Shown here: positions 1,064-24,988 of the stretch, in pieces | Numbering within the stretch: position 1 is the first letter of the stretch | Layout: every line of letters begins with the position of its first letter | IMG/VR virus record: IMGVR_UViG_2636416131_000002 | Reading direction: 5' to 3' (one strand) | Length of the DNA: 37,548 nucleotides | Source of the DNA: a virus | Lineage: Duplodnaviria > Heunggongvirae > Uroviricota > Caudoviricetes | Made by a program: the position numbers and the translations under genes | Notes under the pieces: generated by a model | Seen by the model: only the letters and a program-made list of their open reading frames with translations | What the model was told of the DNA's origin: nothing | The model's database searches: none

Positions 1064-3535
1064 TTAAGAATCAGCCTGACTCGGGATCAGTTTTTGCCAG
1101 ATAACTGAAACGTATTTTGCCTGGTAACGGGCGTCATCAAGTGCATTATGGCGCTCACCTTCGAATGGAATAGCCGTTCTGGCATCGAAGTCTATGGCTT
1201 TCCCCAGCTCAACGATTGTGCGTACATCGCGATCGTTGTAGTAACGCCACGGGCAGGGGATCCCCTGCCGTTCGTATGAACGGCGCAAAATCGTGTTGTC
1301 GAAGTTGGCTCCATTTCCCCAAACCTGAACAAAAAATTCACCGGAGTTTTCGTCGATAAATTCCCGCAATTGTAACAGTGCATCATCTAACGGGATTTCA
1401 TCGGTCATAATGGCAGATTGCGCTTCGCGTGATTGCTTAAGCCACCATTTAATGGTGTCCCGATCAATGACTCCGCCAGCAGTTTCCAGATCGATAGTCT
1501 TACTAAATTCCGGTCCCATATCTCCGGTTTGCGGATCGAAAAATATTGCACCTATTGAGATGATCGGGGCATCAGGATTTTTTCCCATGGTTTCAAGGTC
1601 GATCATTAGATGGTCACACGTCCTGCTGGTGGATGTGATTTCGTGATGACCGTTCACCTTAATTGGGTGATCTGCCGTCTCGCCAGTTTCATTATCGCTA
1701 TTGTGATGCTGATTGCCGCCAGTGTTCTCCTTGTGTGGATGTTCAGCGCCTTCCATTTCCTCCGGATCATCTTCCTGAACTTCAACCTGATACTCTTCAT
1801 CGAATGTTTCTTGGTATGTTGCGTCGCCCATCACCGCGCCACAATCAGGGCAGTTGCCGCCGCCGGTCTGACCGCAGGCGGTGCAGGCTTTTTCCACTTC
1901 CTGTTGCGCCACTGGTTCAGGCTGTTTCGTTTCTGGCTCGTTTTGTAACGCATTTGGACTGTTTTGTTCCGCTTTTTGGTAGTTCCGTTCCGATTCATGC
2001 TGGTTCTGGTTCACAGAATCGCGGGTCTGGATCCCCTTAACCCATTTCGGATCATTCGGGTCACTAATCCCTTCAACAAATTCACCACGTGATGCAGCAA
2101 GCAACTTATCGGCGTCAGGCTGGCTGATATTGGCTGCCTGCATAATTTTGTTTACTTCGTCAGCGGTAACTTTTATCGGCTCTGGTTGTTCTGAATCTTC
2201 AGCGGTATCTACATTTTGCGGTAAGCCCGTGTATGTGCCATTTTTTCGGGCAAAATATTCTTCTTTTGTGATTTCAGTGGCGCCAGCAGCCAGTGCCTTA
2301 TCCAGACCAGAAAGTTTGTTTGCGCGACCGTATTTTTCTCCGTCCTTATCTGCGAAGAGGAAATAGAACGGCCCCTCACGCTCTACAGATGGTTCAGCTT
2401 CCGGCGCGGTTTCATTTTTTGGGATATCAGATACCTCAGTTTCCACTGCATCAGTTTGTGTTTCTGATGACTGGAGAACATCAACAGTGCCCAGGTCTGT
2501 TTCTTCATTCTCAAACACGCCCTTTGTCGTCAGGTATTCGCAGATATATTTGTTCAGTGCTACGGGATCTTTGTGAATGTCGATCGGACGCTCACGGACA
2601 AGGCCAAAAATAGTTTGGCGGTCGTAGCGAAGGGCATCAGGCTGTTTGCGCATTGATGCCGAGATACGCTTCCAGTCTTCGCGGTCGTTGTCGATAACTT
2701 CTTTTTTTGCCCAGCGATGGATGCTGCCGTCAATGTTTCCGGCATCCACATCACCAGGCCAGAGAGCGTAGGCCAGTTCGTCATCCAGTGTTTTCCATGT
2801 CTGCTTGTATTCGCGATGAATGGCAGCAATGACCGGGCTGATTTTTCCTGTTGAATTTTCAGTGTACTGTTGATTGGCTCTGGCGCGGGCGAGATCAACA
2901 ACAGACGTGTATTTTCCGGTTTCCTTGCGTTCACCTTCGCGACGTTTTTTCCAGATGCGCATCTCTGCCTGAATTTCGGGCCATTTAGCACCAGGAATAC
3001 ATTTATGCTTAACCCACCCAATGGCGTGCAACTTAAGCTCCGGATACATGGCGTTAACTTCTGGCATTTTCATCAACGCTTCAACGATATGTCCGTCGAA
3101 TGTTGCCATGTCTTCCTGCAACAATTCCTGTGCGCTAATAACCATATCAACGGTGATGTTTTCACATGTGTCGAACTTAACCATGACAGCGTTCTGTACT
3201 TCAGGGGCCAGCTTGTCAAAAGTGACGTTCATCGGATCGGATTCAGTCTCAACCGGGACAAAAGAAGCAGACTCCTCATCCCAGCGGTTTTCCTGCATAT
3301 ATTCAGCATCCCATGAATCGAGGGCAGGGCGGGGTATGCCAGGTTTATCCTCGCAGACAATAAATTTATAAGCGCAGTCCTGAGCAGCCGGATAATGTTC
3401 CAGGAACTGCCAGTGAAATTTTGCTCGAGCACGGCGTTCGTCGCCAGCTTCAATGGCTGTGGCTACAGCCACAGCGCCTTCTTCCCTTGTTGCCAGTTCG
3501 TCAGGAATAGCGGCGCAAATAAAGACTTTACTCAT
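1064..3535 (-). CDS. Prophage exonuclease, 823 aa: long acidic N-terminal region with a CxxC-x14-CxxC zinc ribbon plus C-terminal DnaQ-like DEDDh 3'-5' exonuclease domain
   Basis: C-terminus carries the DEDDh motifs (MIDLETMG; WGNGANFDNTIL; HNALDDARY). Zinc ribbon is CTACGQTGGGNCPDCG. GAGG ribosome-binding site upstream of the ATG at 3535. Sits where exo/recE lies in lambdoid phages. Confidence 0.8.
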   Translation of the reverse strand: MSKVFICAAIPDELATREEGAVAVATAIEAGDERRARAKFHWQFLEHYPAAQDCAYKFIVCEDKPGIPRPALDSWDAEYMQENRWDEESASFVPVETESDPMNVTFDKLAPEVQNAVMVKFDTCENITVDMVISAQELLQEDMATFDGHIVEALMKMPEVNAMYPELKLHAIGWVKHKCIPGAKWPEIQAEMRIWKKRREGERKETGKYTSVVDLARARANQQYTENSTGKISPVIAAIHREYKQTWKTLDDELAYALWPGDVDAGNIDGSIHRWAKKEVIDNDREDWKRISASMRKQPDALRYDRQTIFGLVRERPIDIHKDPVALNKYICEYLTTKGVFENEETDLGTVDVLQSSETQTDAVETEVSDIPKNETAPEAEPSVEREGPFYFLFADKDGEKYGRANKLSGLDKALAAGATEITKEEYFARKNGTYTGLPQNVDTAEDSEQPEPIKVTADEVNKIMQAANISQPDADKLLAASRGEFVEGISDPNDPKWVKGIQTRDSVNQNQHESERNYQKAEQNSPNALQNEPETKQPEPVAQQEVEKACTACGQTGGGNCPDCGAVMGDATYQETFDEEYQVEVQEDDPEEMEGAEHPHKENTGGNQHHNSDNETGETADHPIKVNGHHEITSTSRTCDHLMIDLETMGKNPDAPIISIGAIFFDPQTGDMGPEFSKTIDLETAGGVIDRDTIKWWLKQSREAQSAIMTDEIPLDDALLQLREFIDENSGEFFVQVWGNGANFDNTILRRSYERQGIPCPWRYYNDRDVRTIVELGKAIDFDARTAIPFEGERHNALDDARYQAKYVSVIWQKLIPSQADS

Positions 3536-3628
3536 TTTGTTTTAACCTCATGACAGATTTAAGGATGAACAAATCCCTGCCATTGCTGGCATATAAGAAT
3601 GAAACCGGATATTTATTACGGAACTGTT

Positions 3629-3820
3629 TTAAAGACCTGCCGGGATTTCGATATTATCCTGGTGAATAACTTTATCGACCGGGTAACAGTTACCGGGAAT
3701 TTTCTGTTCGGTTGCTGCAGTCATACACTCCTGCATTGTCCTGTGAACACTGACTGCAATATCAACTGGCACTCCGGAAACAAGAAAAACTGTCAGAACA
3801 AGCGCAAATGCTGAATTCAT
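3629..3820 (-). CDS. ydfD: YdfD-like small membrane lysis protein (63 aa)
   Basis: Internal start MNSAFALVLTVFLVSGVPVD… gives 63 aa with one hydrophobic helix. The ATG overlaps the dicB stop (ATGA). Matches Qin YdfD by length and remembered sequence. Confidence 0.75.
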   Translation of the reverse strand: MNSAFALVLTVFLVSGVPVDIAVSVHRTMQECMTAATEQKIPGNCYPVDKVIHQDNIEIPAGL

Positions 3821-4005
3821 TGTGCACATCCTTTTGGCATCAGACGTAAACGAGCCAGCATTGAAACAATGCATATTTTATTTAATAGCTCCCGTTCTTG
3901 TTTTCTCTTGTTAATGGCATCTTCAGTAAATACAGGGTTACTGATAGTGACACCAATTTCAAAACAACCTTCAGACGTATTAACGTTTGGTAATAACGTT
4001 TTCAT
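3817..4005 (-). CDS. dicB: DicB cell-division inhibitor (62 aa)
   Basis: MKTLLPNVNTSEGCFEIGVTISNPVFTEDAINKRKQERELLNKICIVSMLARLRLMPKGCAQ, 62 aa, GAGGA ribosome-binding site upstream, immediately downstream of DicF. Confidence 0.9.
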   Translation of the reverse strand: MKTLLPNVNTSEGCFEIGVTISNPVFTEDAINKRKQERELLNKICIVSMLARLRLMPKGCAQ

Positions 4006-4175
4006 TATCGCGTCCTCAACAATGAATTCTGTGATGCAGTGCCTGGTGCCTCCAGGTGACGTTAACCAGTTAACAATTAACGTCGGATACAGAGAATCCA
4101 CCCATAACACTGTTTTTGGTTTTAACTGTTCCGCGTGCGCTTAGCCGTATTCACCGCATCACAAAATTCACTTTA

Positions 4176-4232
4176 AAAAGGGCGGCAGAGCAGTCACGGA
4201 GTAAAACTGATACCGCCAAACGTCACCAGAAA
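4176..4232 (-). ncRNA. dicF: DicF small RNA (Hfq-dependent, ftsZ-targeting) with its intrinsic terminator
   Basis: Reverse complement of 4176-4232 reads TTTCTGGTGACGTTTGGCGGTATCAGTTTTACTCCGTGACTGCTCTGCCGCCCTTTTT, matching DicF as I recall it; GC stem followed by a U run. Confidence 0.9.
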
Positions 4233-4263
4233 ATTGATAACAGAGGGCGTTGCAGCGGGGTTG

Positions 4264-4455
4264 TCACTTAAGCGTATGGTCAACCTGACAACCCGGTGTC
4301 CTCAACGGGGAAGGAATAACCCCGCCATACTTACCGCCGCGCCATTTTGCGGGTTGCCACAACCGGAAGCGCACGGTCGAATTAAATTTAACGACACCGT
4401 ACAGTGAGACGAACTTCGCCGTGCGCTTTCGTGTTGTGTGCCTGCTTTTAACCAC
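4264..4455 (-). CDS. YdfC-like ORF upstream of DicF; may instead be DicF precursor leader
   Basis: 63-aa GTG-initiated frame in a GC-rich, structured region directly 5' of DicF. Coding status uncertain. Confidence 0.25.
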   Translation of the reverse strand: MVKSRHTTRKRTAKFVSLYGVVKFNSTVRFRLWQPAKWRGGKYGGVIPSPLRTPGCQVDHTLK

Positions 4456-4470
4456 GTCAGGCGAGGTGGT

Positions 4471-4499
4471 ATCCTTAAAATCACCACAGTTTTAAGGAT
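4471..4499. repeat. Perfect 10-bp inverted repeat ATCCTTAAAA / TTTTAAGGAT with 9-bp spacer
   Basis: Read directly. Lies at the stop of the minus-strand 205-aa ORF and 11 nt upstream of the plus-strand ORF at 4510. No U tract follows on either strand, so not a typical intrinsic terminator. Confidence 0.6.
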
Positions 4500-5067
4500 T
4501 CATTAAGCAATGTCGCAACCACCAATAAATCCGCTTAAGAACATGAAAATTGATTACTGGTATAAAGCTCTTACAGTTGTTGGCGCTGCGTTGTTTGTCT
4601 TTAATGGAACGTCTTTTTTTGACAGATATCCCGTTGTTCCATTGGGTTTTTTGTCCTCCGGCATCTTTTTTATTGGTTTGGGGGAGTGGATTAATCACCC
4701 TCTCATAGTGAGATTTATTGGTCCTGGAGTTTGGACTCGTGGATATAATCGTTCTTCGTGCGCACTCGGTATCATCTTCGACATACTTGGTTGTTTCCTG
4801 ATTGTTACAGGAGTCGTCAAGTTCTTCTGATGTAAAACCGCAAATGGGGCACGTAACGGGAATTTTGAAAAGCGTTTCTCCGGGTTCCAGAACAAAATTT
4901 TCTGCGGTCTGATTTTGCTTCTCATATTTGTGCTCCGCGTCATTGTGAGAGCACATTCTTATTCTGAGTGCCTGTTTAAACTCACTGAAGCTGAGAGCTT
5001 CTTCGCCTTCGGCAAGGCCTTCGAAGTATTCTTCGTAAGCCTTTTCCATGATTGTGTCGAAATCCAT
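4492..5067 (-). CDS. Hypothetical protein with YdfB-like N-terminus (MDFDTIMEKAYEEYFEG…); frame stays open 191 codons
   Basis: AGGTGA ribosome-binding site before the ATG at 5067, directly after the upstream gene's stop. N-terminal ~80 residues look protein-like; the C-terminal ~100 residues are N/K/R/S-rich and overlap the plus-strand membrane ORF. Confidence 0.4.
   Translation of the reverse strand: MDFDTIMEKAYEEYFEGLAEGEEALSFSEFKQALRIRMCSHNDAEHKYEKQNQTAENFVLEPGETLFKIPVTCPICGFTSEELDDSCNNQETTKYVEDDTECARRTIISTSPNSRTNKSHYERVINPLPQTNKKDAGGQKTQWNNGISVKKRRSIKDKQRSANNCKSFIPVINFHVLKRIYWWLRHCLMNP
4510..4830 (+). CDS. Putative small inner-membrane protein (about 3 predicted transmembrane helices), antisense to the leftward operon
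   Basis: 106-aa ORF with three hydrophobic stretches (ALTVVGAALFVF; GFLSSGIFFIGLG; ALGIIFDILGCFLIVTGVV). AAGGA 11 nt upstream of ATG. Fully overlapped by the minus-strand ORF 4492..5109; only one is likely real here. Confidence 0.35.
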   Translation: MSQPPINPLKNMKIDYWYKALTVVGAALFVFNGTSFFDRYPVVPLGFLSSGIFFIGLGEWINHPLIVRFIGPGVWTRGYNRSSCALGIIFDILGCFLIVTGVVKFF

Positions 5068-5068
5068 A

Positions 5069-5224
5069 TCACTCACCTGAGTTTCTTTCCAGCCAGCGAC
5101 GGGCACCATTTTCGGTTTTAAACGTTTTGCTTTTGGTATACGTCATCGCGGTGAACGTGCCGTCCTGGTTGGGGAACACGCCACATACCAGAGATTCGCT
5201 GTTGCCAAGATCGATAGTATCCAT
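5069..5224 (-). CDS. YdfA / YdaF-like small protein (51 aa)
   Basis: MDTIDLGNSESLVCGVFPNQDGTFTAMTYTKSKTFKTENGARRWLERNSGE, GAGGT ribosome-binding site upstream, first gene after the leftward promoter. Length matches the K-12 ydfA/ydaF paralogs. Confidence 0.6.
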   Translation of the reverse strand: MDTIDLGNSESLVCGVFPNQDGTFTAMTYTKSKTFKTENGARRWLERNSGE

Positions 5225-5300
5225 GCTGACCTCATTTCCCCTTAACGCCGGGGTAGCGGAACTGTTTGCTGAGAACACCGTGCGGTGTCTTGATGGAGGT

Positions 5301-5329
5301 AATTTAGTTTTCTCATTATTTTTCGTCAA
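5301..5329 (-). promoter_or_regulatory. Early-left (PL-like) promoter: -35 TTGACG, 17-bp spacer, -10 TAAATT, read on minus strand
   Basis: Hexamers read directly with 17-bp spacing, about 75 nt upstream of the ydfA-like start and flanked or overlapped by two copies of the operator motif. Confidence 0.45.
5303..5316. promoter_or_regulatory. Operator copy 2 (TTTAGTTTTCTCAT), overlaps the -10 of the PL-like promoter
   Basis: 12 of 14 positions match the palindromic operator at 5875-5888 when read on the opposite strand (ATGAGAAAACTAAA). Confidence 0.45.
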
Positions 5330-5338
5330 GTTTTTTTG

Positions 5339-5352
5339 ATTAGAAAACTCAA
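5339..5352. promoter_or_regulatory. Operator copy 1 (ATTAGAAAACTCAA), just upstream of the PL-like -35
   Basis: 12 of 14 positions match the palindromic operator at 5875-5888. Confidence 0.45.
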
Positions 5353-5416
5353 GTGTTGGCGCAAGATAAAGCCAATACATTGAAATGTAAGGCTTTAAAA
5401 TTTTGTGAAGGGATGA

Positions 5417-5824
5417 TTATTGATGCTTGTTGCGTTTGCGAGCCTCTAATAGCTCGGTGAACAGGCGATTAAAATTCTCAACGCGGGCGCGGAGTTCGCT
5501 GAGTTGTGCTTGTTGCTCTGATTTAGGAAGTGCGCGATACAAACGCAGCATCTCTAACTCATCTTCCGATAAGTCTAAGGCACTATCGAGTGAAACAGGG
5601 GGAGCTGGTGTTTTGTCCTCGTCGCCAAACAGTATCCAAGTTGGTGAACATTGCAATACCTCGGCGAGGCGATGCAAATTTTGCCCGCGCGGGGCTGTAT
5701 GGTCACTTTCCCATAATGAAATTGATGAGCCAGATACGCCAGCAGCTTTGCTTAAACCGTTTTGACTTAAGCCTACCTGCTTACGTCTTTCTCTAATGCG
5801 TTGACCTAAAGTTTTCTCGTTCAT
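5417..5824 (-). CDS. dicA: DicA / RacR-family HTH (XRE-type) prophage repressor, 135 aa from the internal ATG
   Basis: HTH region QVGLSQNGLSKAAGVSGSSISLWE and the motif LQCSPTWILFGDEDK, which I recall from DicA. Divergent from a Cro-like gene. An in-frame upstream ATG at 5875 (152 aa) sits inside the operator palindrome and could serve a leaderless transcript. Confidence 0.7.
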   Translation of the reverse strand: MNEKTLGQRIRERRKQVGLSQNGLSKAAGVSGSSISLWESDHTAPRGQNLHRLAEVLQCSPTWILFGDEDKTPAPPVSLDSALDLSEDELEMLRLYRALPKSEQQAQLSELRARVENFNRLFTELLEARKRNKHQ

Positions 5825-5845
5825 ATTTAGATATCTTAATAACCC

Positions 5846-5875
5846 TTGACTTGAGATTCCTTGAGTGATTAGCAT
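5846..5875 (+). promoter_or_regulatory. Early-right (PR-like) promoter: -35 TTGACT, 18-bp spacer, -10 TAGCAT
   Basis: Hexamers read directly; the -10 abuts the perfect palindrome at 5875-5888; Cro-like ATG at 5902. Confidence 0.4.
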
Positions 5876-5888
5876 TGAGAAAACTCAA
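5875..5888. promoter_or_regulatory. Perfect 14-bp palindromic operator TTGAGAAAACTCAA
   Basis: Read directly. Lies between the divergent repressor and Cro-like genes; two further TTGAG half-sites at 5851 and 5861. Confidence 0.6.
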
Positions 5889-5901
5889 TATTGGAGGTGC
5901 G

Positions 5902-6129
5902 ATGTTTAAATCAGACGTAATTAATTTTTACGGTACGAAAGCCAAAGTAGCGAAAGCTGCTGGCGTTGACCCATCTGCTGTTTCTCAATGGCAAGAGCTG
6001 GTTCCTGAAGGTCGCGCGATGCGTCTACAGGAGGCATCTGGCGGCGAGCTTCTGTATGATCCCAAGGTTTATGACGAATATCGTAAGACGAAGCGGGCGG
6101 GGCGGTTGAACAATGAAAATCACTCCTGA
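5902..6129 (+). CDS. Cro-like small HTH regulator (DicC / YdaS type), 75 aa
   Basis: MFKSDVINFYGTKAKVAKAAGVDPSAVSQWQ… HTH, divergent from the repressor, GGAGG ribosome-binding site. The ORF track starts it at an upstream in-frame codon (5875). Confidence 0.7.
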   Translation: MFKSDVINFYGTKAKVAKAAGVDPSAVSQWQELVPEGRAMRLQEASGGELLYDPKVYDEYRKTKRAGRLNNENHS

Positions 6130-6634
6130 ACAGGCTCGTGAGGCTCTGGATGCCTGGATATGTCGACCAGGAATGACACAGGAGCAGGCGACGATATTAA
6201 TCACTGAAGCATTCTGGGCTTTGAAAGAGCGCCCGAACATCGATGTTCAGCGTGTCACAGATGAAGGTGGCGCGGTTGATCAGCGAGCACTTGGCGTTAA
6301 TCGAGTGAAGATATTCGAACGCTGGAAGGCTATCGACACCAGGGATAAGCGTGAAAAGTTCACGGCGCTAGTGCCTGCAATTATGGAGGCTATTCGGATT
6401 AATGATTTCAGGTTGTATCGTGAAATTAGTGACGGAAAAAGCATCACGTACATGATCGCCGGGTTAAACAAAGAATATGGCGATGTGGTGGAGTCCGGAC
6501 TGCTTTTTGCTGATCCTGCCGTAGTGGATCGTGAAACTGACGAACTTATAGAAAAAGCAATTGCTTTCAAACTTGCGTATCGACAGCAATACCAACAAAA
6601 AGCTGGATGGAATTATGAGCCTTCTTTTTGCTGA
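6113..6634 (+). CDS. YdaT-like protein (CII-position regulator), 173 aa
   Basis: Follows the Cro-like gene with overlapping stop/start, as ydaS-ydaT do in Rac-type immunity regions. Family call from position and recalled similarity. Confidence 0.55.
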   Translation: MKITPEQAREALDAWICRPGMTQEQATILITEAFWALKERPNIDVQRVTDEGGAVDQRALGVNRVKIFERWKAIDTRDKREKFTALVPAIMEAIRINDFRLYREISDGKSITYMIAGLNKEYGDVVESGLLFADPAVVDRETDELIEKAIAFKLAYRQQYQQKAGWNYEPSFC

Positions 6635-7580
6635 ACGCCCACTGGTTATAAACACACAGCTTGCGATGAAGATTGGCTTAAATGAAGCCATTGTGTTGCA
6701 GCAGTTGCATTACTGGTTGAGAGATACCAATTCCGGCATGGAATGTGATGGTGTTCGCTGGATTTACAACACAACGGAACAATGGCTGGAACAGTTCCCA
6801 TTCTGGTCAGAGTCAACGTTAAAGCGCGCGTTTGCAAGTCTGAAAACGCTGGGGCTTTTGCGTTGTGAAAAGCTCAATAAATCAAAGCGCGATATGACCA
6901 ATTTCTACACGATCAACTACGGGAGCGAGCTTTTAGATGGTGGCAAATTGAGCGAATCCATCGGTTTAAAATGCGCCGCTCCATCAGGTCAAAATGACAC
7001 GATGGAAGAGGTCAAAATGAAACGCTCCATTGGTTCAAAACGACCCAATGTCATCGGGTCAAAATGGCCTGATGATCTTACAGAGAATACAACAGAGATT
7101 ACTACAGAGAATAAAAACACTTTTCGTCCGGAAGCTTCGCAACCGGACCCGCAGACCGCTGAACAGGATTTTTTAACCCGGAACCCCGACGCGGTTGTGT
7201 TTAGTGCGAAAAAACGCCAGTGGGGTAGCAGGGAGGATTTGGCGTGTGCGCAGTGGATTTGGGGGCGGATCGTGAACCTTTACGAACAGGCTGCCAGCGA
7301 CGATGGAGAGATCATGCGACCAAAAGAGCCTAACTGGACAGCCTGGGCCAATGACGTGCGCACAATGCGGATGCTGGATGGCAGAAGCCACAGACAAATT
7401 TGCGAAATGTTTGGTCGGGTACAGCGAGATCAATTCTGGGTAAAAAACATCATGAGCCCGTCAAAACTCCGCGAAAAATGGGACGAACTGGTCATCCGCC
7501 TGGGACGTTCACCTGTACAGCGTTGTGTGAATCATATTTCTGAACCGGATACAGAAATTCCGCCTGGTTTCAGGGGATAA
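6615..7580 (+). CDS. Phage replication initiation protein (O-like / replisome-organizer type) containing the iteron array
   Basis: N-terminal winged-helix-like region (LNEAIVLQQLHYWLRD…LKRAFASLKTLGLL) and internal DNA iterons at 6956-7065, the lambda O / ori arrangement. Start chosen at the ATG at 6615, overlapping the upstream gene. Confidence 0.65.
   Translation: MSLLFAERPLVINTQLAMKIGLNEAIVLQQLHYWLRDTNSGMECDGVRWIYNTTEQWLEQFPFWSESTLKRAFASLKTLGLLRCEKLNKSKRDMTNFYTINYGSELLDGGKLSESIGLKCAAPSGQNDTMEEVKMKRSIGSKRPNVIGSKWPDDLTENTTEITTENKNTFRPEASQPDPQTAEQDFLTRNPDAVVFSAKKRQWGSREDLACAQWIWGRIVNLYEQAASDDGEIMRPKEPNWTAWANDVRTMRMLDGRSHRQICEMFGRVQRDQFWVKNIMSPSKLREKWDELVIRLGRSPVQRCVNHISEPDTEIPPGFRG
6956..7065. 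repeat. Five iterons, consensus TCCATCnGGTCAAAATG, spaced 22-24 bp (candidate origin)
   Basis: Copies start at about 6956, 6980, 7003, 7025 and 7049, read directly; located inside the replication gene. Confidence 0.7.
7080..7113. repeat. Three ACAGAGAWTA repeats at 12-bp period in an AT-rich stretch next to the iterons
   Basis: ACAGAGAATA, ACAGAGATTA, ACAGAGAATA read directly; iterons followed by an AT-rich segment is the lambda ori pattern. Confidence 0.4.
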
Positions 7581-7620
7581 GTGTTGATTTTAGGGTATAA
7601 AGTAATGTTCAGGAGGACTT

Positions 7621-8040
7621 GTGGCAAAAGTTTTTACACAAGAAGAGCGGGAAAAAATTAAAGGGCAGGTGGTGGAACTCGTACGCCAGAGTGGGCGCGA
7701 GACGTTACGACAACTGGAAGCTAAAACTGGGGCAACAAGATATCTGATGAGCGTTCTGGCCAGAGAGCTGGTTGCCAGTGGCGATGTATACAGCTCTGGT
7801 TACGGGTTATTCCCGTCTGAACAGGCGCGTAAGGACTGGCAAAACGCCCGCAAAAAACTCTCGAGGGCAAAGGTGAAGAAACCTGCTGTGGTTGATCCGG
7901 ACCTTATCTGGTCATTACCTGACGGAGAAATACGTCGCTACGACAGTCGTCTAAACATAATCTGTCGCGAGTGCCGGAAGGCAAGGAGAAGCAGGCTATT
8001 GTTAACACCAAGCTGTAATGTCCCCTTTGAACCATTCTAA
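7621..8040 (+). CDS. Hypothetical protein, 139 aa, GTG start; 3' end may be altered by the adjacent insertion sequence
   Basis: Strong AGGAGG ribosome-binding site before GTG at 7621. Sits where a helicase loader would be expected, but no Walker motif is visible. ORF ends 34 nt before the transposase ATG. Confidence 0.5.
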   Translation: MAKVFTQEEREKIKGQVVELVRQSGRETLRQLEAKTGATRYLMSVLARELVASGDVYSSGYGLFPSEQARKDWQNARKKLSRAKVKKPAVVDPDLIWSLPDGEIRRYDSRLNIICRECRKARRSRLLLTPSCNVPFEPF

Positions 8041-9640
8041 AATGTCCCCAGACAATTCTCTGGGGGATTTTTCATGATCAAAGAGACTGTTACGATGAGT
8101 CATAAGGAACTCCACCGACTTCAGATTATTCAGGAGTCAATTAATCGACATATTACTCAGGAACAAGCTGCGGCACGCATTGGCATTTCTATTCGGCAGG
8201 TTAAACGTCTGGTGCAACGGTATAGAAATGAAGGGCCTTCTGGTCTGGTTTCCCACCGACGTGGAAAGCGTCCTAATAATTCCTTTTCTACTGAATTCAG
8301 AGCAACAGTAATTTCACTCCTCAAAGGCCGTTACGCTGATTTTGGACCTACGTTTGCGTGCGAAAAATTGCGCGAGATACACGGTTTATCTTTATCCGTT
8401 GAAACTCTCAGAAAGTGGATGATAGAAGAGGGGTTATGGCGTGAACGCCGTCGTAAAATTGCCCGTATATATCAACGCCGCATGCGACGACCATCTTACG
8501 GTGAACTGATCCAGATTGATGGCTCACCTCATGACTGGTTTGAAAATCGAGGCCCCAGATGTACACTGATCGTTTTCATTGATGATGCCACCAGTGCGTT
8601 GATGGCGTTGCGTTTTGTGCCTGCTGAAACAACCCGGGCTTACATGGAAACCCTCCGGGGTTACCTTAATGATCATGGCGTACCGCTCGCTCTCTACTCT
8701 GATAGACACAGTATATTCAGGGTAAATAACCCAGAGCGGGAAGGTGAGCTGACCCAGTTCACTCGTGCGATAAAGACACTGGGCATCGAGCCAATCCATG
8801 CCAACAGCCCGCAGGCAAAAGGGCGGGTAGAGCGCGCCAATCAGACACTACAGGACAGGCTGGTCAAAGAAATGCGGCTTCAGAATATCAGTGATATTGA
8901 AACAGCAAATGCATGGTTGCCGACCTTTATTGAAGCCTATAACAACCGGTTCGCTACGTCGCCTCGTACTACTGATAATGCTCATCTTGATGTGCACCAT
9001 TCTGAAGAGGAACTGGGTTATATCTTCAGCCTACAGGCGAAGCGCGTTCTGTCTAAAAATCTCACTTTCCAGTACAAAAGCAGTGCGTTTCAGGTACGCA
9101 GTGAGGGCCGGGGATATCGACTTAGGCATTCAGTTGTTACTGTATGTGAGAACTTTGACGGTGAAATTAACGTTCTGTATGACGGGAAAGCGCTGGGCTG
9201 GGAAAAGTATGTTGATGGCCCGGAGCCTATACCACTGGATGATGAAAAGAGTGTCCATGAACGAGTGGATAATGCCCGTATTGATTTACGCTCAAAATAC
9301 TATGTTAAATCTAAAGCTGACCATCCCTGCTTACGCGCCGAACGCAAAGTCATCAGTAAGTTAAGCCCCCGAAGTTACCTAAAAAGAAGCCTGATCCCGA
9401 TAAAATAGATTGAAACCAAGATCGATTCGGTTGAGTGCATATCCATTCATAGGGTAGATTCTTAAGTCGCGTTTCTGGTGTTCATTTTCGGGTGGTTTGT
9501 TACTTGTTTTACCGGGGATATGCCAGAAACGCGCTGAGTCAGTCTGGGCGGTGCGCGTAATGAGGCGTTATGGTAAATAGCCTATGCTAATGTCCGCTAA
9601 GAGCAAGAAGCGGAAGTTGGCAGTTTTGTGGACTGTCCCC
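8041..9640 (+). mobile_element. Insertion sequence carrying the 444-aa transposase; ends not resolved
   Basis: Transposase gene interrupts the replication / nin region. I could not identify terminal inverted repeats; TGTCCCCA occurs in direct orientation at 8043-8050 and 9634-9641 and might mark a target duplication. Boundaries are approximate. Confidence 0.3.
8074..9408 (+). CDS. DDE transposase (rve / integrase-core type), 444 aa, N-terminal HTH
   Basis: N-terminal HTH (ITQEQAAARIGISIRQVKRLVQRY), central integrase-core-like region with conserved D/E residues, size and layout typical of single-ORF IS481 / ISNCY-like elements. Family not resolved without search. Confidence 0.8.
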   Translation: MIKETVTMSHKELHRLQIIQESINRHITQEQAAARIGISIRQVKRLVQRYRNEGPSGLVSHRRGKRPNNSFSTEFRATVISLLKGRYADFGPTFACEKLREIHGLSLSVETLRKWMIEEGLWRERRRKIARIYQRRMRRPSYGELIQIDGSPHDWFENRGPRCTLIVFIDDATSALMALRFVPAETTRAYMETLRGYLNDHGVPLALYSDRHSIFRVNNPEREGELTQFTRAIKTLGIEPIHANSPQAKGRVERANQTLQDRLVKEMRLQNISDIETANAWLPTFIEAYNNRFATSPRTTDNAHLDVHHSEEELGYIFSLQAKRVLSKNLTFQYKSSAFQVRSEGRGYRLRHSVVTVCENFDGEINVLYDGKALGWEKYVDGPEPIPLDDEKSVHERVDNARIDLRSKYYVKSKADHPCLRAERKVISKLSPRSYLKRSLIPIK

Positions 9641-9808
9641 ACAAAAGTGACTACAGAAATAGTTGCAATTCATAATTGATCATGGGTTGTCAGTTAAACT
9701 CGTGGCGATTTAAATAGACTAATTGGGAGTGCGTCCATTACTTATATCTTGTAATGTTAACTATCAGAAATGATACAAAGATAATATGTCTTTAAAGAAA
9801 AGGCTGAT

Positions 9809-9835
9809 GGCGAAAAGTGGCCCGATGAGGGCCAC
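9809..9835 (-). terminator. Intrinsic terminator downstream of flxA
   Basis: Stem GTGGCCC / GGGCCAC with 5-nt loop, followed on the minus strand by TTTTCG. Confidence 0.6.
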
Positions 9836-9849
9836 AATACGGCTGTCAC

Positions 9850-10182
9850 TTAGACGTAAATATCAATGGTGCCAGCGGTATTTGTATCGTCTTTTTTCTC
9901 TTCTTTTTTATCAGGCTGAACTGTCGCGTCTTTATTCTTTTTCTCTGCCTGCTGCCTTAACAACTGCTCCAGTTGAGCCCTGAGGCTTTCAATTTGCTTC
10001 TGTACCAATGCAGCCATTTCTTTTTTCTGCTGTGTCGTCATCCCCTCTTCCGATGAGATTTTCCCAAGCTTTTCAGTCAGCACCTGAATTTGTCTTGTGA
10101 TTTTGGCTATTTCTGATGTTCCTTCCGGGGCGGAGTTGTTTGAAATAACGGTTGAGGTATTTCCCTGAATTGTGACAGACAT
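9850..10182 (-). CDS. flxA: FlxA (FliA-regulated protein), 110 aa
   Basis: MSVTIQGNTSTVISNNSAPEG…, coiled-coil rich, AGGAG ribosome-binding site, sigma-28 promoter directly upstream. Matches Qin flxA in length and sequence as recalled. Confidence 0.85.
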   Translation of the reverse strand: MSVTIQGNTSTVISNNSAPEGTSEIAKITRQIQVLTEKLGKISSEEGMTTQQKKEMAALVQKQIESLRAQLEQLLRQQAEKKNKDATVQPDKKEEKKDDTNTAGTIDIYV

Positions 10183-10205
10183 AGATTTCTCCTTTTAAAA
10201 AAGCA

Positions 10206-10232
10206 CTATCGGCATGCACAAAAAAATCTTTA
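10206..10232 (-). promoter_or_regulatory. Sigma-28 (FliA) class-3 promoter: TAAAGATT, 11 nt, GCCGATAG
   Basis: Minus strand reads TAAAGATT-N11-GCCGATAG against consensus TAAAGTTT-N11-GCCGATAA, about 25 nt upstream of the flxA ATG. Confidence 0.7.
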
Positions 10233-10384
10233 ATCGTATTTCTTGTGTCATTAATTGTTTGATGTTCAGATTGTTTTCCTCGCGGGCTGGCGCGCCTCAG
10301 AAAGTAAAGCTTGTTGACAGGGGTAAACGTTCGGCAATAATTTTCTGCCGCATGCGGGTGTTGCATAAAACGTGCTACGTTCCT

Positions 10385-10690
10385 TTATCGACAGGTCAGG
10401 TCACCACTCACCCGCCGACGAGAAAGCAACACTGACATGCTAAAGCAAAAAATAGATGAATAAGTTGAGTTGTGCATATGTAGCCTGACCGTCACAAAGT
10501 ATATGGTGTCTGTACCAGTAAGATGATGGCCGGACTCTTTAAAAACGAGCTGACCTGCACAATACAGGATGGACTTAGCAATGGCTGCTCCTGGCACAAA
10601 GCGGACAGTGATCACCGTTCTTACGACTACTTTCTGACTTCCTTCGTGACTTGCCCTAAGCATGTTGTAGTGCGATACTTGTAATGACAT
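10385..10690 (-). CDS. YdfV-like ORF, 101 aa
   Basis: Length equals K-12 ydfV and position (between flxA and relB) agrees. Composition is not strongly protein-like and it overlaps the relBE promoter region. Confidence 0.3.
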   Translation of the reverse strand: MSLQVSHYNMLRASHEGSQKVVVRTVITVRFVPGAAIAKSILYCAGQLVFKESGHHLTGTDTIYFVTVRLHMHNSTYSSIFCFSMSVLLSRRRVSGDLTCR

Positions 10691-10703
10691 TTGTAATTAC
10701 AAG
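10677..10703. promoter_or_regulatory. relBE operator: palindrome CTTGTAAT…ATTACAAG
   Basis: ACTTGTAATGACATTTGTAATTACAAGA read directly, 12 nt upstream of the relB ATG. Confidence 0.6.
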
Positions 10704-10714
10704 AGGTGTAAGAC

Positions 10715-10954
10715 ATGGGTAGCATTAACCTGCGTATTGACGATGAACTTAAAGCGCGTTCTTACGCCGCGCTTGAAAAAATGGGTGTAACTCCTTCTGA
10801 AGCGCTTCGTCTCATGCTCGAGTATATCGCTGACAATGAACGCTTGCCGTTCAAACAGACACTCCTGAGTGATGAAGATGCTGAACTTGTGGAGATAGTG
10901 AAAGAACGGCTTCGTAATCCTAAGCCAGTACGTGTGACGCTGGATGAACTCTGA
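10715..10954 (+). CDS. relB: RelB antitoxin, 79 aa
   Basis: MGSINLRIDDELKARSYAALEKMGVTPSEALRLMLEYIADNERLPF…; stop overlaps the relE start. Confidence 0.9.
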   Translation: MGSINLRIDDELKARSYAALEKMGVTPSEALRLMLEYIADNERLPFKQTLLSDEDAELVEIVKERLRNPKPVRVTLDEL

Positions 10955-11241
10955 TGGCGTATTTTCTGGATTTTGACGAGCGGGCACTAAAGGAATGGCG
11001 AAAGCTGGGCTCGACGGTACGTGAACAGTTGAAAAAGAAGCTGGTTGAAGTACTTGAGTCACCCCGGATTGAAGCAAACAAGCTCCGTGGTATGCCTGAT
11101 TGTTACAAGATTAAGCTCCGGTCTTCAGGCTATCGCCTTGTATACCAGGTTATAGACGAGAAAGTTGTCGTTTTCGTGATTTCTGTTGGGAAAAGAGAAC
11201 GCTCGGAAGTATATAGCGAGGCGGTCAAACGCATTCTCTGA
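10954..11241 (+). CDS. relE: RelE mRNA-interferase toxin, 95 aa
   Basis: MAYFLDFDERALKEWRKLGSTVREQLKKKL…RLVYQVIDEKVVVFVISVGKRERSEVY, translationally coupled to relB. Confidence 0.9.
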   Translation: MAYFLDFDERALKEWRKLGSTVREQLKKKLVEVLESPRIEANKLRGMPDCYKIKLRSSGYRLVYQVIDEKVVVFVISVGKRERSEVYSEAVKRIL

Positions 11242-11312
11242 ACCAAAGCATGACATCTCTGTTTCGCACCGAAGGTGACACTTCTGCTTTGCGTTGACAG
11301 GAGAAGCAGGCT

Positions 11313-11468
11313 ATGAAGCAGCAAAAGGCGATGTTAATCGCCCTGATCGTCATCTGTTTAACCGTCATAGTGACGGCACTGGTAACGAGGAAAGACCTCT
11401 GCGAGGTACGAATCCGAACCGGCCAGACGGAGGTCGCTGTCTTCACAGCTTACGAACCTGAGGAGTAA
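11313..11468 (+). CDS. hokD: HokD (RelF) Hok-family membrane toxin, 51 aa; below the ORF-track size cutoff
   Basis: Translated by hand: MKQQKAMLIALIVICLTVIVTALVTRKDLCEVRIRTGQTEVAVFTAYEPEE, third gene of the relBEF operon. Confidence 0.85.
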   Translation: MKQQKAMLIALIVICLTVIVTALVTRKDLCEVRIRTGQTEVAVFTAYEPEE

Positions 11469-11536
11469 GAGACCCGGCGGGGGAGAAATCCCTCGCCACC
11501 TCTGATGTGGCAGGCATCCTCAACGCACCCGCACTT

Positions 11537-11567
11537 AACCCGCTTCGGCGGGTTTTTGTTTTTATTT
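11537..11567 (+). terminator. Intrinsic terminator after hokD
   Basis: ACCCGC-TTCG-GCGGGT stem-loop followed by TTTTTGTTTTTATTTT. Confidence 0.8.
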
Positions 11568-11684
11568 TCAACGCGTTTGAAGTTCTGGACGGTGCCGGAA
11601 TAGAATCAAAAATACTTAAGTAGCGCGCAGGGATAAGAGGGATGGTCCCTTAAAGGGGAGAGCTAATTATCCGGAAGGATTCTG

Positions 11685-11936
11685 ATGATGAACATCGAAG
11701 AACTGCGTAAAATTTTTTGTGAAGATGGCCTCTATGCTGTGTGCGTTGAAAATGGAAATCTTGTTAGTCATTACCGCATTATGTGTTTGCGAAAGAATGG
11801 GGCTGCGTTAATTAATTTTGTGGATGCTCGGGTCACGGACGGATTTATCTTGCGCGAAGGTGAGTTTGTCACTTCATTACAGGCATTGAAAGAGATCGGA
11901 ATAAAAGCTGGCTTTTCTGCTTTTTCAGGAGAATAA
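11685..11936 (+). CDS. rem: Rem-like protein, 83 aa
   Basis: 83-aa ORF between the relBEF terminator and ydfU, matching the position and length of Qin rem. Confidence 0.6.
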   Translation: MMNIEELRKIFCEDGLYAVCVENGNLVSHYRIMCLRKNGAALINFVDARVTDGFILREGEFVTSLQALKEIGIKAGFSAFSGE

Positions 11937-12002
11937 ACTCATCTACAATCTTGCGCGGGGCTGAACTCCCGCTGAGTAACACCGTGCCACCGGAGAAAAC
12001 CG

Positions 12003-12281
12003 ATGGCACGCAACGCAAAATATTACAATTCTGATAATTCGCCCGTTCTTGCCTGCACGCACGGGCGGTATTCTCACGCATTCAAGTCTGAATGGTTCCA
12101 GCACCCTCCATGCACTGCAGAACAGGCCGAATGGCTGATTCATTCTTACCGCAGGCGCGGGTTCGAGGTTAAGAAAGCTCTCAGTCTCGACTATCGGCAC
12201 TGGATAATCTCTGTCAGGCTGCCTTATTCCGAACGCCCACCACGTGCGTCCCGCACTTTCCAGCAACGGATCTGGAGGTAA
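12003..12281 (+). CDS. Hypothetical small protein, 92 aa, translationally coupled to ydfU
   Basis: GGAGAAAA ribosome-binding site before the ATG; stop lies 1 nt before the ydfU GTG. No family recognised. Confidence 0.35.
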   Translation: MARNAKYYNSDNSPVLACTHGRYSHAFKSEWFQHPPCTAEQAEWLIHSYRRRGFEVKKALSLDYRHWIISVRLPYSERPPRASRTFQQRIWR

Positions 12282-12282
12282 C

Positions 12283-13332
12283 GTGCGGGTATTACTTAGA
12301 CCTGTTCTGGTGCCTGAGCTTGGGCTGGTGGTCCTTAAGCCGGGCCGTGAATCCATACAGATATTTCATAATCCTCGAGTGCTGGTGGAACCGGAACCAA
12401 AAAGCATGCGTAATCTGCCATCCGGAGTCGTTCCTGCCGTTCGCCAGCCGCTGGCGGAAGACAAAACATTGCTGCCGTTTTTTAGTAACGAACGGGTGAT
12501 TCGTGCTGCTGGCGGCGTTGGCGCATTGTCCGACTGGCTATTACGTCATGTTACATCCTGCCAGTGGCCTAATGGCGATTACCATCACACTGAAACAGTC
12601 ATTCACCGTTATGGTACCGGCGCAATGGTGTTGTGCTGGCACTGCGACAACCAACTGCGTGACCAGACATCGGAATCACTGGAGCTGCTTGCTCAACAAA
12701 ATCTGACAGCATGGGTGATTGACGTCATCCGTCACGCAATAAGCGGTACGCAGGAGCGGGAATTATCTTTGGCTGAATTATCCTGGTGGGCGGTCTGCAA
12801 TCAGGTGGTGGATGCACTACCTGAGGCTGTATCGCGTCGTTCGCTGGGATTACCAGCGGAAAAAATCTGCTCGGTGTACCGCGAAAGCGACATCGTACCG
12901 GGAGAGCAGACCGCCACCAGCATATTGAAACAACGCACAAAAAATCTTGCACCGTTGCCTTACGCCCACCAGCAACAAAAATCACCACAGGAAAAGACGG
13001 TGGTAAGCATCACCGTTGATCCAGAGTCTCCGGAATCTTTCATGAAGCTGCCTAAACGTCGCCGCTGGGTTAAGGAGAAATACACACGTTGGGTTAAGAC
13101 ACAGCCGTGTGCTTGCTGCGGTATGCCAGCCGACGATCCGCATCATCTGATTGGTCACGGGCAGGGCGGAATGGGAACAAAAGCACATGATCTCTTTGTG
13201 TTGCCTTTGTGCAGAAAGCATCACAACGAGCTGCATACGGATACAGTGGCATTTGAAGATAAGTATGGCTCCCAACTGGAGCTGATATTTCGTTTTATCG
13301 ATCGCGCGCTGGCAATTGGCGTACTGGCGTAA
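12283..13332 (+). CDS. ydfU: YdfU-like DUF968 protein, 349 aa, with C-terminal Cys/His cluster
   Basis: GTG start preceded by GGAGG gives 349 aa, equal to K-12 YdfU. C-terminal motif CACCGMPADDPHHLIGHGQGGMGTKAHDLFVLPLCRKHHNELH. Confidence 0.75.
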   Translation: MRVLLRPVLVPELGLVVLKPGRESIQIFHNPRVLVEPEPKSMRNLPSGVVPAVRQPLAEDKTLLPFFSNERVIRAAGGVGALSDWLLRHVTSCQWPNGDYHHTETVIHRYGTGAMVLCWHCDNQLRDQTSESLELLAQQNLTAWVIDVIRHAISGTQERELSLAELSWWAVCNQVVDALPEAVSRRSLGLPAEKICSVYRESDIVPGEQTATSILKQRTKNLAPLPYAHQQQKSPQEKTVVSITVDPESPESFMKLPKRRRWVKEKYTRWVKTQPCACCGMPADDPHHLIGHGQGGMGTKAHDLFVLPLCRKHHNELHTDTVAFEDKYGSQLELIFRFIDRALAIGVLA

Positions 13333-13345
13333 GTGGAGAACGAGC

Positions 13346-14098
13346 ATGAACCTTGAAGCCTTACCAAAATATTACTCCCCAAAATCTCCAAAATTGAGCG
13401 ATGACGCTCCAGCGACAGGCACCGGTTGTTTAACAATTACGGATGTAATGGCAGCGCAGGGGATGGTGCAGTCGAAAGCACCACTTGGGTTGGCCTTATT
13501 TCTGGCAAAAGTTGGTGTTCAGGACCCTCAGTTTGCGATTGAAGGCCTGCTAAATTACGCGATGGCACTGGATAACCCGACATTGAACAAATTGAGTGAA
13601 GAAATCCGGTTACAGATTATTCCTTACCTCGTGAGTTTTGCCTTTGCTGATTACTCCAGGTCTGCGGCAAGTAAGGCTCGCTGTGAGCATTGTTCAGGTA
13701 CGGGATTTTATAATGTATTGCGCGAAGTGGTGAAACACTACAGACGCGGGGAATCTGTAATCAAGGAAGAATGGGTGAAGGAACTATGTCAGCATTGCCA
13801 TGGTAAGGGCGAAGCCAGCACAGCGTGCAGAGGGTGTAAGGGTAAAGGGATTGTTCTGGATGAAAAAAGAACCCGGTTTCATGGCGTACCGGTATATAAG
13901 ATTTGTGGGCGTTGTAATGGAAACCGGTTTAGTCGTTTACCGACCACGCTGGCACGACGTCATGTCCAGAAGCTGGTACCAGACCTGACCGATTATCAGT
14001 GGTATAAGGGGTATGCGGACGTCATTGGTAAACTGGTAACAAAGTGCTGGCAGGAAGAAGCATACGCGGAAGCGCAATTGAGGAAGGTGACGAGATAA
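13346..14098 (+). CDS. quuQ: Late-gene antiterminator Q (phage 82 / 21 type), 250 aa
   Basis: MNLEALPKYYSPKSPKLSDDAPATGTGC… with zinc-binding CxxC pairs (CEHCSGTG, CQHCHGKG, CRGCKGKG, CGRCNG). GGAG ribosome-binding site; followed by a late promoter and terminator. Confidence 0.85.
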   Translation: MNLEALPKYYSPKSPKLSDDAPATGTGCLTITDVMAAQGMVQSKAPLGLALFLAKVGVQDPQFAIEGLLNYAMALDNPTLNKLSEEIRLQIIPYLVSFAFADYSRSAASKARCEHCSGTGFYNVLREVVKHYRRGESVIKEEWVKELCQHCHGKGEASTACRGCKGKGIVLDEKRTRFHGVPVYKICGRCNGNRFSRLPTTLARRHVQKLVPDLTDYQWYKGYADVIGKLVTKCWQEEAYAEAQLRKVTR

Positions 14099-14129
14099 AT
14101 GATTTTTGCTGAAGATGGCGACATGATGT

Positions 14130-14158
14130 TTGCATTTTTCAAAAAATATGGATAAAAT
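14130..14158 (+). promoter_or_regulatory. Late promoter (PR'-like): -35 TTGCAT, 17 bp, -10 TAAAAT
   Basis: Hexamers read directly, about 30 nt after the Q stop and about 50 nt upstream of an intrinsic terminator. Confidence 0.5.
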
Positions 14159-14203
14159 TTTTTCAATGATGGGCTTTGTATACCCGACGTTAAGAAAAAG
14201 TAG

Positions 14204-14234
14204 AAAACCCGCTGATGAGCGGGTTTTGTGCTTT
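14204..14234 (+). terminator. Intrinsic terminator (tR'-like) after the late promoter
   Basis: AACCCGC-TGATGA-GCGGGTT stem-loop followed by TTGTGCTTT. Confidence 0.75.
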
Positions 14235-15528: not shown

Positions 15529-15556
15529 CAAACCCGCTCAGGCGGGTTTTTTATTA
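15529..15556 (+). terminator. Intrinsic terminator about 280 nt downstream of cspB
   Basis: AACCCGC-TCAG-GCGGGTT followed by TTTTATT. Confidence 0.7.
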
Positions 15557-24975: not shown

Positions 24976-24988
24976 TTCCTGGTTCAGG

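Follow-up and report, generated by a model that had tools for sequence, protein, structure and literature searches.

The subject of this analysis is a 37,548-nucleotide stretch of viral DNA (Caudoviricetes; IMG/VR record IMGVR_UViG_2636416131_000002), referred to below, at its full length, as the window, and in particular the region in which a transposase gene follows the gene of the replication initiator. The window represents a Qin-like lambdoid prophage of Escherichia coli. Its positions 6500-10300 share 99.9% identity with many complete genomes, including that of the O26:H11 strain 11368, for which the Prokaryotic Genome Annotation Pipeline (PGAP) gives, in order, a cI-like repressor, Cro, a YdaT-like protein, a 321-aa hypothetical protein, a DUF977 protein, an "IS1202-like element ISEsa1 family transposase" (pseudogene), ydfW, flxA, ydfV, relB, relE, hokD, rem, ydfU and ydfT (Q). 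The complete 45-kb phage HannyBb, whose source was bird faeces, is collinear with positions 653-7980 and 11299-37548 of the window (93-99% nucleotide identity); a second uninterrupted relative, mEp460_ev081, is a named phage genome. A preliminary description of the region, made from the sequence alone, had placed next to a 139-aa gene an insertion sequence (IS) ending near 9700, and suggested that the insertion or an associated deletion had removed a P- or DnaC-like helicase loader and most of the nin region, leaving the prophage replication-defective. The transposase proved to be real, but it belongs to a predicted cargo-carrying transposon of 3.3 kb whose target was a hok-family gene and not lygF, the gene represented by the 139-aa open reading frame (ORF). 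The collinearity with HannyBb shows that just about 1.6-2.5 kb between lygF and hok, rather than most of the nin region, is missing.

The transposon comprises 3,300 bp (8000-11299, + strand) and contains, from left to right, the left inverted repeat (IRL), tnp, flxA, ydfV, relB, relE and the right inverted repeat (IRR). Its limits are defined by the inverted repeats, the target site duplication (TSD) and the other copies described below. The IRL (TGTTAACACCAAGCTGTAATGTCCCCTT; 8000-8027, +) matches the reverse complement of the IRR (ending in ..AAGGTGACACTTCTGCTTTGCGTTGACA; 11272-11299, +) at 21 of 28 positions, and the termini have the form TGT...ACA. When the whole window was scanned for an inverted copy of 7995-8030, a single outstanding match was obtained, at 11272-11299. 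No right inverted repeat was detected near 9608-9618 (range 9590-9625 scanned), where only copies of an ATGTCC motif in direct orientation are present. A second, subterminal copy of the ..AATGTCCCC motif occurs at 8031-8049.

The transposon is flanked by a perfect 15-bp duplication. The left copy, GGAGAAGCAGGCTAT (7985-7999), is located within a 19-bp remnant of a hok leader (7981-7999, +), a sequence that recurs without change in the hok leader, at the empty site, of HannyBb and mEp460_ev081. The second copy of this 15-mer (11300-11314, +) directly abuts the IRR and spans the Shine-Dalgarno sequence of hokD and the AT of its start codon. Alignment with uninterrupted relatives, a check proposed in the preliminary description, reconstructed the empty site, since both HannyBb and mEp460_ev081 carry one copy of the 15-mer (...TGCCGAAAGGCAAGGAGAAGCAGGCTATGAAGCAG). 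The left limit was set at 8000 because the 27 bp ahead of TGTTAACACC vary among the plasmids carrying other copies and are hok-type leaders. For the same reason we rejected the inclusion of 7972-7999 in the IS, which was considered in view of plasmid matches starting at 7972: the plasmid left flanks differ there and represent hok leaders. Some of these plasmid matches extend well beyond 9700 and take in flxA, ydfV, relB and relE. Between the IRL and the tnp start codon there is a terminator-like hairpin (8045-8066, +; consensus match only), in which a G+C-rich sequence is followed by a T run. It could shield tnp against read-through from the hok promoter or the phage pR operon.

The tnp gene (8074-9408, +) encodes a 444-aa protein, whose recognition as a DDE transposase in the preliminary description was borne out by a match to the NCBIfam model NF033594 (transpos_ISNCY_2; 465.6 bits against a cut-off of 250; residues 17-377) and by the Pfam domains rve_3 and HTH_28. 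Protein and DNA alignments with intact 446-aa plasmid alleles (L004, L006 and L012) revealed a 1-bp deletion near 9338, which puts the last 27 codons out of frame; in the catalytic core, one or two substitutions are the only changes. Because of the frameshifted C-terminus, the copy in the window is probably immobile by itself. The genes located downstream, which had been taken for phage morons, are cargo of the transposon: (i) flxA (9850-10182, −; Pfam FlxA; annotated in L006 and in L001, a collinear relative with 99.9% identity over window positions 6500-10300), (ii) ydfV (10385-10690, −; an ORF annotated as ydfV in L001, L004 and L006) and (iii) the type II toxin-antitoxin pair (10715-11241, +) of relB (10715-10954) and relE (10954-11241), annotated in L001, L006, L011 and L012. 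In every full-length copy examined, relBE forms a conserved module at the right end. A simple IS has a length of approximately 1.3-2.5 kb and the transposase as its sole gene; a length of 3,300 bp and five ORFs besides tnp (flxA, ydfV, relB, relE and one in the tnp-distal region) make transporter IS or unit transposon the more fitting term for the element.

These features identify 8000-11299 as one predicted 3.3-kb transposable unit of the IS1202 (ISNCY) family. With this family (formerly the IS1202 group of ISNCY; PMC10132070) it shares an ISNCY_2 transposase of the ISNCY/IS1202 DDE type and imperfect, TGT-starting terminal repeats of about 22-28 bp (here 21/28). A flanking TSD of characteristic length, a perfect 15 bp, was found in the window and in four other copies; it is unusually long, compared with 16-28 bp in the long-TSD subgroup of IS1202 (PMC10132070). 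Target-specific members of the ISAjo2 type insert into dif/pdif sites with 5-bp duplications (PMC10132070), whereas the element described here enters the starts of hok genes and duplicates 15 bp. The name assigned by PGAP to close copies is "IS1202-like element ISEsa1 family transposase", and the identity of the left 1.6 kb with ISEsa1 rests on this naming. ISEsa1 is listed in ISfinder as a 1,609-bp element (IR 15/22), and its TSD was not detectable in a survey of the family (PMC10132070). In contrast, the mobile unit in the window is 3.3 kb in length (up to 12.8 kb in other copies), includes passenger genes, of which relBE occupies the right end, generates 15-bp TSDs, prefers the start regions of hok-family genes and has no right inverted repeat about 1,609 bp from its left end. 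A distance of 1,609 bp from 8000 reaches 9608; there the conserved tnp block stops and, in diverged copies, the cargo begins (at approximately 9608-9618). We infer that the curated right boundary of ISEsa1 marks the border between two modules, and that the transposon does not end there. If the boundary was placed at the border of tnp and cargo, the absence of a TSD is to be expected.

Four other copies, carried by plasmids, were analyzed at both ends. They are located in (i) the IncI plasmid NZ_CP030003 (3,301 bp; TSD TGGAGGGGCTATGAT), (ii) a Phytobacter IncF plasmid (L011 616-13458, NZ_AP018757.1; 12,843 bp; TSD GGAGAAGTCAGCTAT; cargo ncrABCY, chrBA and others), (iii) the Klebsiella pneumoniae plasmid pKP2509-MCR (L012 706-5305, NZ_CP065953.1; 4,600 bp; TSD GGAGAAAAAGGCTAT; cargo cytochrome b and a CDF transporter) and (iv) an Enterobacter adelaidei plasmid (L021 662-6754; 6,093 bp; TSD GGAGAAGAAGGCCAT). 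Each of the four has its own perfect 15-bp duplication and lies directly 5′ of a different hok-family ORF. In all of them tnp is at the left and relB-relE beside the right end; the cargo varies, and the total length ranges from 3.3 to 12.8 kb. Judged by these junctions, the same putative transposon family has inserted at no fewer than five different hok-family loci, with a 15-bp duplication at each. The larger members carry nickel (ncrABCY) and chromate (chrBA) resistance genes, cytochrome b together with a CDF transporter, or an insertion of the IS110 family, always between tnp and relBE; the plasmids concerned are conjugative, of the IncF/IncHI types, and come from Klebsiella, Enterobacter and Phytobacter.

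A scan of species-representative genomes with a 20-mer of the right end revealed 34 loci in many enterobacterial genera, about half of which continue into a hok-family ORF. Six of the 34 matches (L017, L033, L035, L038, L045 and L049) are located in non-enterobacterial genomes or metagenome-assembled genomes, on contigs labelled Chryseobacterium, Pseudomonadales, Anaerolineales, Azotimanducaceae and Terriglobales, and have no relE nearby. The number of matches expected by chance is about one, and these six may represent contamination or unrelated or chance matches. In L018 and L028, tnp or relBE has been lost, yet both ends are kept, with duplications matching at 13 of 15 positions at sites other than hok. 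Derivatives of 1.9-2.6 kb that retain both ends but have the transposase deleted or replaced (L018 1952-4526, L028 3121-5058 and L020 2520-4892) are possible non-autonomous relatives resembling miniature inverted-repeat transposable elements.

The left flank of the transposon in the window has been altered by a deletion. The lygF gene (DUF977, ydaW-like) retains codons 1-120 (7621-7980, +) within the 139-aa ORF (7621-8040). The ORF matches Pfam PF06163 (DUF977/LygF/YdaW; 79.1 bits against a cut-off of 22.1) over profile positions 1-115 of 134, is assigned to PHROG 142 ("Ren-like exclusion protein") and contains no Walker A motif, in agreement with the earlier observation that it lacks ATPase motifs. 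Its alignment to intact lygF (L002 and L003) stops at 7978/7980, i.e. at codon 120; the intact LygF of HannyBb has 140 aa and covers profile positions 1-133. Codons 121-126 of the chimeric ORF originate from the hok-leader remnant, and the last 13 codons and the stop codon from the IRL, as had been suspected of its 3′ end in the preliminary description.

The deletion junction (7972-7980, +), defined by comparison with L002, L003, L014, L015 and L051, coincides with a microhomology of 8/9 bp, TGCCG(G/A)AAG, between lygF (TGCCGGAAG) and the hok leader (TGCCGAAAG). Carriers of the transposon without the deletion have the sequence ..GAGTGCCGGAAG/AGCG.. in lygF and ..ACGTGCCGAAAG/GCAAGGAG.. in the hok leader, and these are joined in the window as ..GAGTGCCGGAAG/GCAAGGAG... 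The lost interval, of 1.6-2.5 kb depending on the relative, comprises the last 20 codons of lygF, a variable gene slot and the promoter/mok/sok region of hok. The slot looks like a defence or moron hotspot (its coordinates are 5779-6738 in L014, 5439-6926 in L015, 33011-33697 in L013 and 7897-9246 in L002). Its occupants include SIR2 (KSC1031), an Sll1717-type P-loop protein (ETEC1738), a methyltransferase (PhiR42_1), QueH (HannyBb) and a 449-aa hypothetical protein. The deletion has removed this moron slot and the hok regulatory region, and no loader. The junction predicted for an intermediate, in which an intact hok leader is joined to the IRL, was found in 675 of 5,426 complete E. coli genomes, which places the insertion first and the deletion second. 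A post-insertion deletion via microhomology brought codon 120 of lygF together with the hok leader at a point 19 bp away from the left end of the transposon, and created the chimeric 139-aa ORF. The junction of the window itself is present in 105 of the 5,426 genomes (junction-specific search); this figure replaced a count of 317 genomes at 80% coverage, which could include undeleted relatives joined across the gap. An undeleted state is also seen in PhiR42_1 (PV340562.1, L051; from ECOR13; 48.7 kb, deposited as a "complete" phage genome), which carries the whole transposon in the hok site (5511-8784) with intact lygF and hok leader. PhiR42_1 indicates that the transposon can ride in a phage genome of packageable size.

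The insertion target, hokD (11313-11468, +; annotated as hokD in L001 and in E. coli K-12), encodes a toxin of 51 aa. Its ORF is intact, but the leader was split by the transposon and the upstream part deleted save for 19 bp; an uninterrupted hok locus is present in L002 and L003. The components of a hok/sok type I locus (a mok frame, a sok antisense RNA and upstream fold-back elements) were not found, and an Rfam search of window positions 4000-13000 detected no Sok-type RNA. The gene no longer adjoins its own promoter and the mok/sok region. The transposon inserted in the region between the Shine-Dalgarno sequence and the ATG of this prophage hok-family gene, duplicating 15 bp; in the mechanism that we propose, hokD would thereby have escaped mok/sok control and come to lie behind relBE, giving the "relBEF" arrangement of K-12.

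The Qin prophage of K-12 MG1655 (L016, 1641000-1652000) aligns to window positions 6001-6392 and then 9230-15587 with 99.8% identity. It shares the gene order flxA, ydfV, relB, relE, hokD, rem, ydfU, and keeps the right 2.1 kb of the transposon (window 9230-11299) together with hokD. A larger deletion (window 6393-9229) has removed most of the ydaT-like gene, the initiator gene, lygF, the left end of the transposon and most of tnp. The first approximately 93 codons of the ydaT-like (cII-like) gene, fused across this deletion, constitute ydfX, whereas ydfW is a fragment from the 3′ portion of the gene of the ISEsa1-like transposase; the mapping of ydfW onto the window is approximate and off by a few bases. 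Since the right 2.1 kb is kept and the left end lost, relB-relE-hokD of K-12 is interpreted as a remnant of this insertion; the complete left end preserved in the window is what reveals the transposon. This would give a concrete origin to the relBE-hokD arrangement, a model toxin-antitoxin locus for decades. Pedersen and Gerdes in 1999 reportedly attributed the missing regulatory region of hokD to a "major rearrangement". An incomplete literature search found no paper naming a transposon as the origin of relBE/hokD, and a prior description is possible.

The evidence tilts slightly in favour of a wider interpretation, in which an IS1202-type family with fixed right-end relBE and variable cargo (flxA/ydfV, nickel/chromate resistance or cation transporters) specifically directs its insertions to the Shine-Dalgarno sequence and start codon of type I toxin genes of the hok family in plasmids and prophages. 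Each insertion would cut hok off from its own promoter and mok/sok and substitute the relBE of the element, i.e. a replacement of one toxin-antitoxin system by another through targeted transposition, which would explain both the origin of relBE(F) in K-12 and the apparent lack of a TSD in ISEsa1. With its boundaries redrawn in this manner, ISEsa1 would become a cargo-carrying, target-specific IS1202 member, which spreads relBE and metal-resistance genes across plasmids and prophages of enterobacteria.

The initiator gene located upstream of lygF (6615-7580, +) is intact and encodes 321 aa from the ATG at 6615 (339 aa from a TTG at 6561). It contains internal ori-like repeats (6945-7116, +), namely five iterons with 23-bp spacing (6945-7074; core GGTCAAAATG) and three 12-bp repeats (7079-7116), which at the protein level correspond to a disordered linker with IGSK.. 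and TENTTEITTEN repeats. This region is likely to be a lambda-like origin of replication inside the gene. The protein matches PHROG 391 ("replication initiation O-like") end to end and several "DnaD-like helicase loader" PHROGs in part, and has no Pfam family. Its own family is widespread, with 4,268 database relatives at E ≤ 1e-5; among the relatives listed, none has a Pfam domain covering the initiator. The N-terminal domain was predicted by AlphaFold to be a winged helix (pLDDT 70-85), closest to a staphylococcal RepA_N initiator, Bacillus subtilis DnaB and the N-terminal domain of DnaD.

The last 20 residues of the initiator (7521-7580; VNHISEPDTEIPPGFRG) share 70% identity with the very C-terminus of DnaT, and the match reaches exactly both C-termini, each of which ends in IPPGFRG. 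The similarity to host DnaT is confined to this tail (..V/N.ISEPD..IPPGFRG-COOH), whereas the remainder of the protein is not detectably DnaT-like. The NCBIfam model of full-length DnaT (NF002770) gave 16.2 bits against a cut-off of 201, with residues 320-339 of the 339-aa ORF aligned, and the matching PDB entries (2ru8, 6aep and 9zbt) cover the last 21 residues only. From these alignments the tail appears to be a case of peptide mimicry or module sharing, and not of family membership. The motif IPxGFRG-COOH is kept in members of the initiator family whose preceding linker has diverged. The ends of several other phage replication-protein PHROGs (18526, 3729 and 1701) match the DnaT-like tail as well, and a portable host-binding peptide is suggested by these matches. 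In the mechanism envisaged, the N-terminal winged-helix domain would bind the iterons, while the DnaD-like C-terminal domain and the C-terminal peptide ..SEPDTEIPPGFRG-COOH, presumably copied from the host restart-primosome protein DnaT, would recruit the host DnaB-DnaC complex. The initiator is thereby hypothesized to engage the helicase-loading machinery of the host directly, and it may dispense with a loader by displaying the C-terminal peptide of DnaT. Such mimicry would offer a handle on what the C-terminus of DnaT binds and how DnaB-DnaC is recruited in replication restart.

The observation that no P- or DnaC-like loader is visible was confirmed: ORF, Pfam and Walker A analyses identified none between the initiator gene and the antiterminator gene (Q), and no real Walker A motif occurs in the ORFs of this interval. 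The same gene order (cro, ydaT-like gene, gene of the 321-aa initiator, lygF) is found in the uninterrupted HannyBb and mEp460_ev081 and in PhiR42_1; in all three, lygF directly follows the initiator gene with no loader between them, and the two genes share 96-98% nucleotide identity with those of the window. The complete annotation of HannyBb includes no helicase or loader, and its terminase is the sole ORF with a convincing Walker A motif. A Walker A scan is blind to a non-ATPase loader resembling lambda P, and hence Pfam scans of the unassigned early ORFs of HannyBb were added, which identified QueH, DUF1391, DicB, DUF977 and an exonuclease, but no replication protein.

The module resembles the lambda O/P and Rac ydaU/ydaV modules in the location of the initiator gene after cro and a cII-like gene, in the iterons inside the initiator gene and in the presence of a gene at the position of ren (DUF977) downstream. 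It differs from both in that neither the window nor HannyBb has an adjacent loader (P or DnaC-like) or a phage helicase, and in that its initiator, unlike those of lambda and Rac, has a DnaD/RepA_N-like N-terminus and ends in the C-terminal peptide of DnaT. We infer that the replication module is natively loader-less and, given the intact initiator with ori-like iterons inside its gene, functional as it stands. Of the two explanations offered in the preliminary description, these relatives favour a different mode of loading over a loss. An uninterrupted relative with this gene and gene order but no loader was the observation named there as refuting the loss, and the loss of a loader is accordingly refuted. 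The module shows no visible damage. In a widespread initiator family, to be without a loader is native, and a missing loader is therefore no reason for annotation pipelines to score such prophages as replication-defective.

Taken together, the data make it likely that a 3.3-kb relBE transposon inserted in hok, that a microhomology deletion followed in which no loader was lost, that the natively loader-less module with its DnaT-like tail is functional, that this copy is probably immobile and that relBEF of K-12 has the same origin. The opposite proposal, in which a 1.6-kb IS in or next to the 139-aa gene, or a deletion adjacent to it, removed a P/DnaC-like loader and the nin region and left a replication-dead prophage, draws on real features, namely a transposase following a 3′-truncated gene, a left flank that does carry a deletion and the absence of a visible loader. 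It is hardly tenable, since the left flank of the element is a hok leader and not lygF, the element reaches 11299 with its TSD in hok, and relatives lacking the insertion or the deletion have no loader in the deleted interval, nor does HannyBb have one anywhere. It is also very improbable that the 3.3-kb block is a short IS plus relBE DNA spread among hok loci by homologous recombination, with the 15-bp repeats representing conserved hok leader. Hok leaders do resemble each other, which makes recombination possible, and both the 1,609-bp length of ISEsa1 in ISfinder and the many plasmid matches that stop at window positions 9608-9618 would suit a shorter element. Yet the duplicated 15-mers differ between sites while being perfect within each of the five pairs, the empty sites have a single copy, and the inverted copy of the left end is situated exactly at the right repeat boundary and not at 9608-9618; moreover, L018 and L028 retain both ends and 13/15 duplications away from hok. 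Several points weigh against the transposon and against a functional replication module: (i) the terminal repeats are only 75% matched, and movement of the 3.3-kb unit as a whole is deduced from sequence, (ii) the transposase in the window is frameshifted, and PGAP calls all chromosomal copies seen pseudogenes, (iii) the structural model of the initiator is poor (mean pLDDT 57, pTM 0.34), its usable part being the N-terminal winged-helix match, (iv) the partner of the DnaT tail is not stated in a 2026 preprimosome structure paper, and the role of the DnaT-like tail is hypothetical, and (v) the functionality of the relatives rests on the phage records of HannyBb and mEp460_ev081.

Truncation of LygF/DUF977 could also affect phage growth, and this leads to an unlikely explanation, according to which LygF, encoded at the position of lambda ren, is needed for replication or helicase recruitment, so that the loss of its last 20 residues has impaired the prophage. 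The replication genes are invariably followed by lygF, both in this phage group and in Rac-type phages, and about 19 of the 134 Pfam profile positions have been lost through the truncation. PHROG 142, on the other hand, groups LygF with Ren-like exclusion proteins, which are accessory, and in Rac-type modules LygF coexists with a DnaC-like loader (a DnaC-like neighbour in the match list), from which it follows that LygF is not itself a loader. The ydaW gene of the K-12 Rac prophage is a pseudogene. The occurrence of the deletion junction in 105 genomes says nothing about LygF function. It is quite unlikely, finally, that an unrecognised early gene, e.g. the 205-aa ORF at 4492-5109 (−) or that of the YdaT-like protein, encodes a non-ATPase loader similar to lambda P. 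Lambda P has no Walker A motif, so a motif scan cannot exclude such a protein, and the 205-aa ORF has no family match. Nevertheless, these ORFs show no Pfam or NCBIfam match to the lambda P, DnaC, DnaB or DnaD families, the 205-aa ORF belongs to a leftward operon far from the replication genes, and the YdaT-like protein matches the cII-like PHROG 163.

Two further features of the window lie outside the region discussed above. Positions 1-652 are part of IS2, and the ORF at 22-642 matches the C-terminal 206 aa of the IS2 protein TnpB (470 bits). The end of IS2 abuts only the first approximately 68 nt (653-720) of the phage integrase gene; in HannyBb, int occupies 24130-25425 and the homology starts from 25358. 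With its integrase gene interrupted in this way, the prophage has probably lost the ability to excise, whatever the state of its replication. The antisense small RNA DicF is encoded at 4180-4231 (−; Rfam RF00039, 76.7 bits against a cut-off of 48), and a sub-threshold STnc100-like match adjoins it at 4028-4168.

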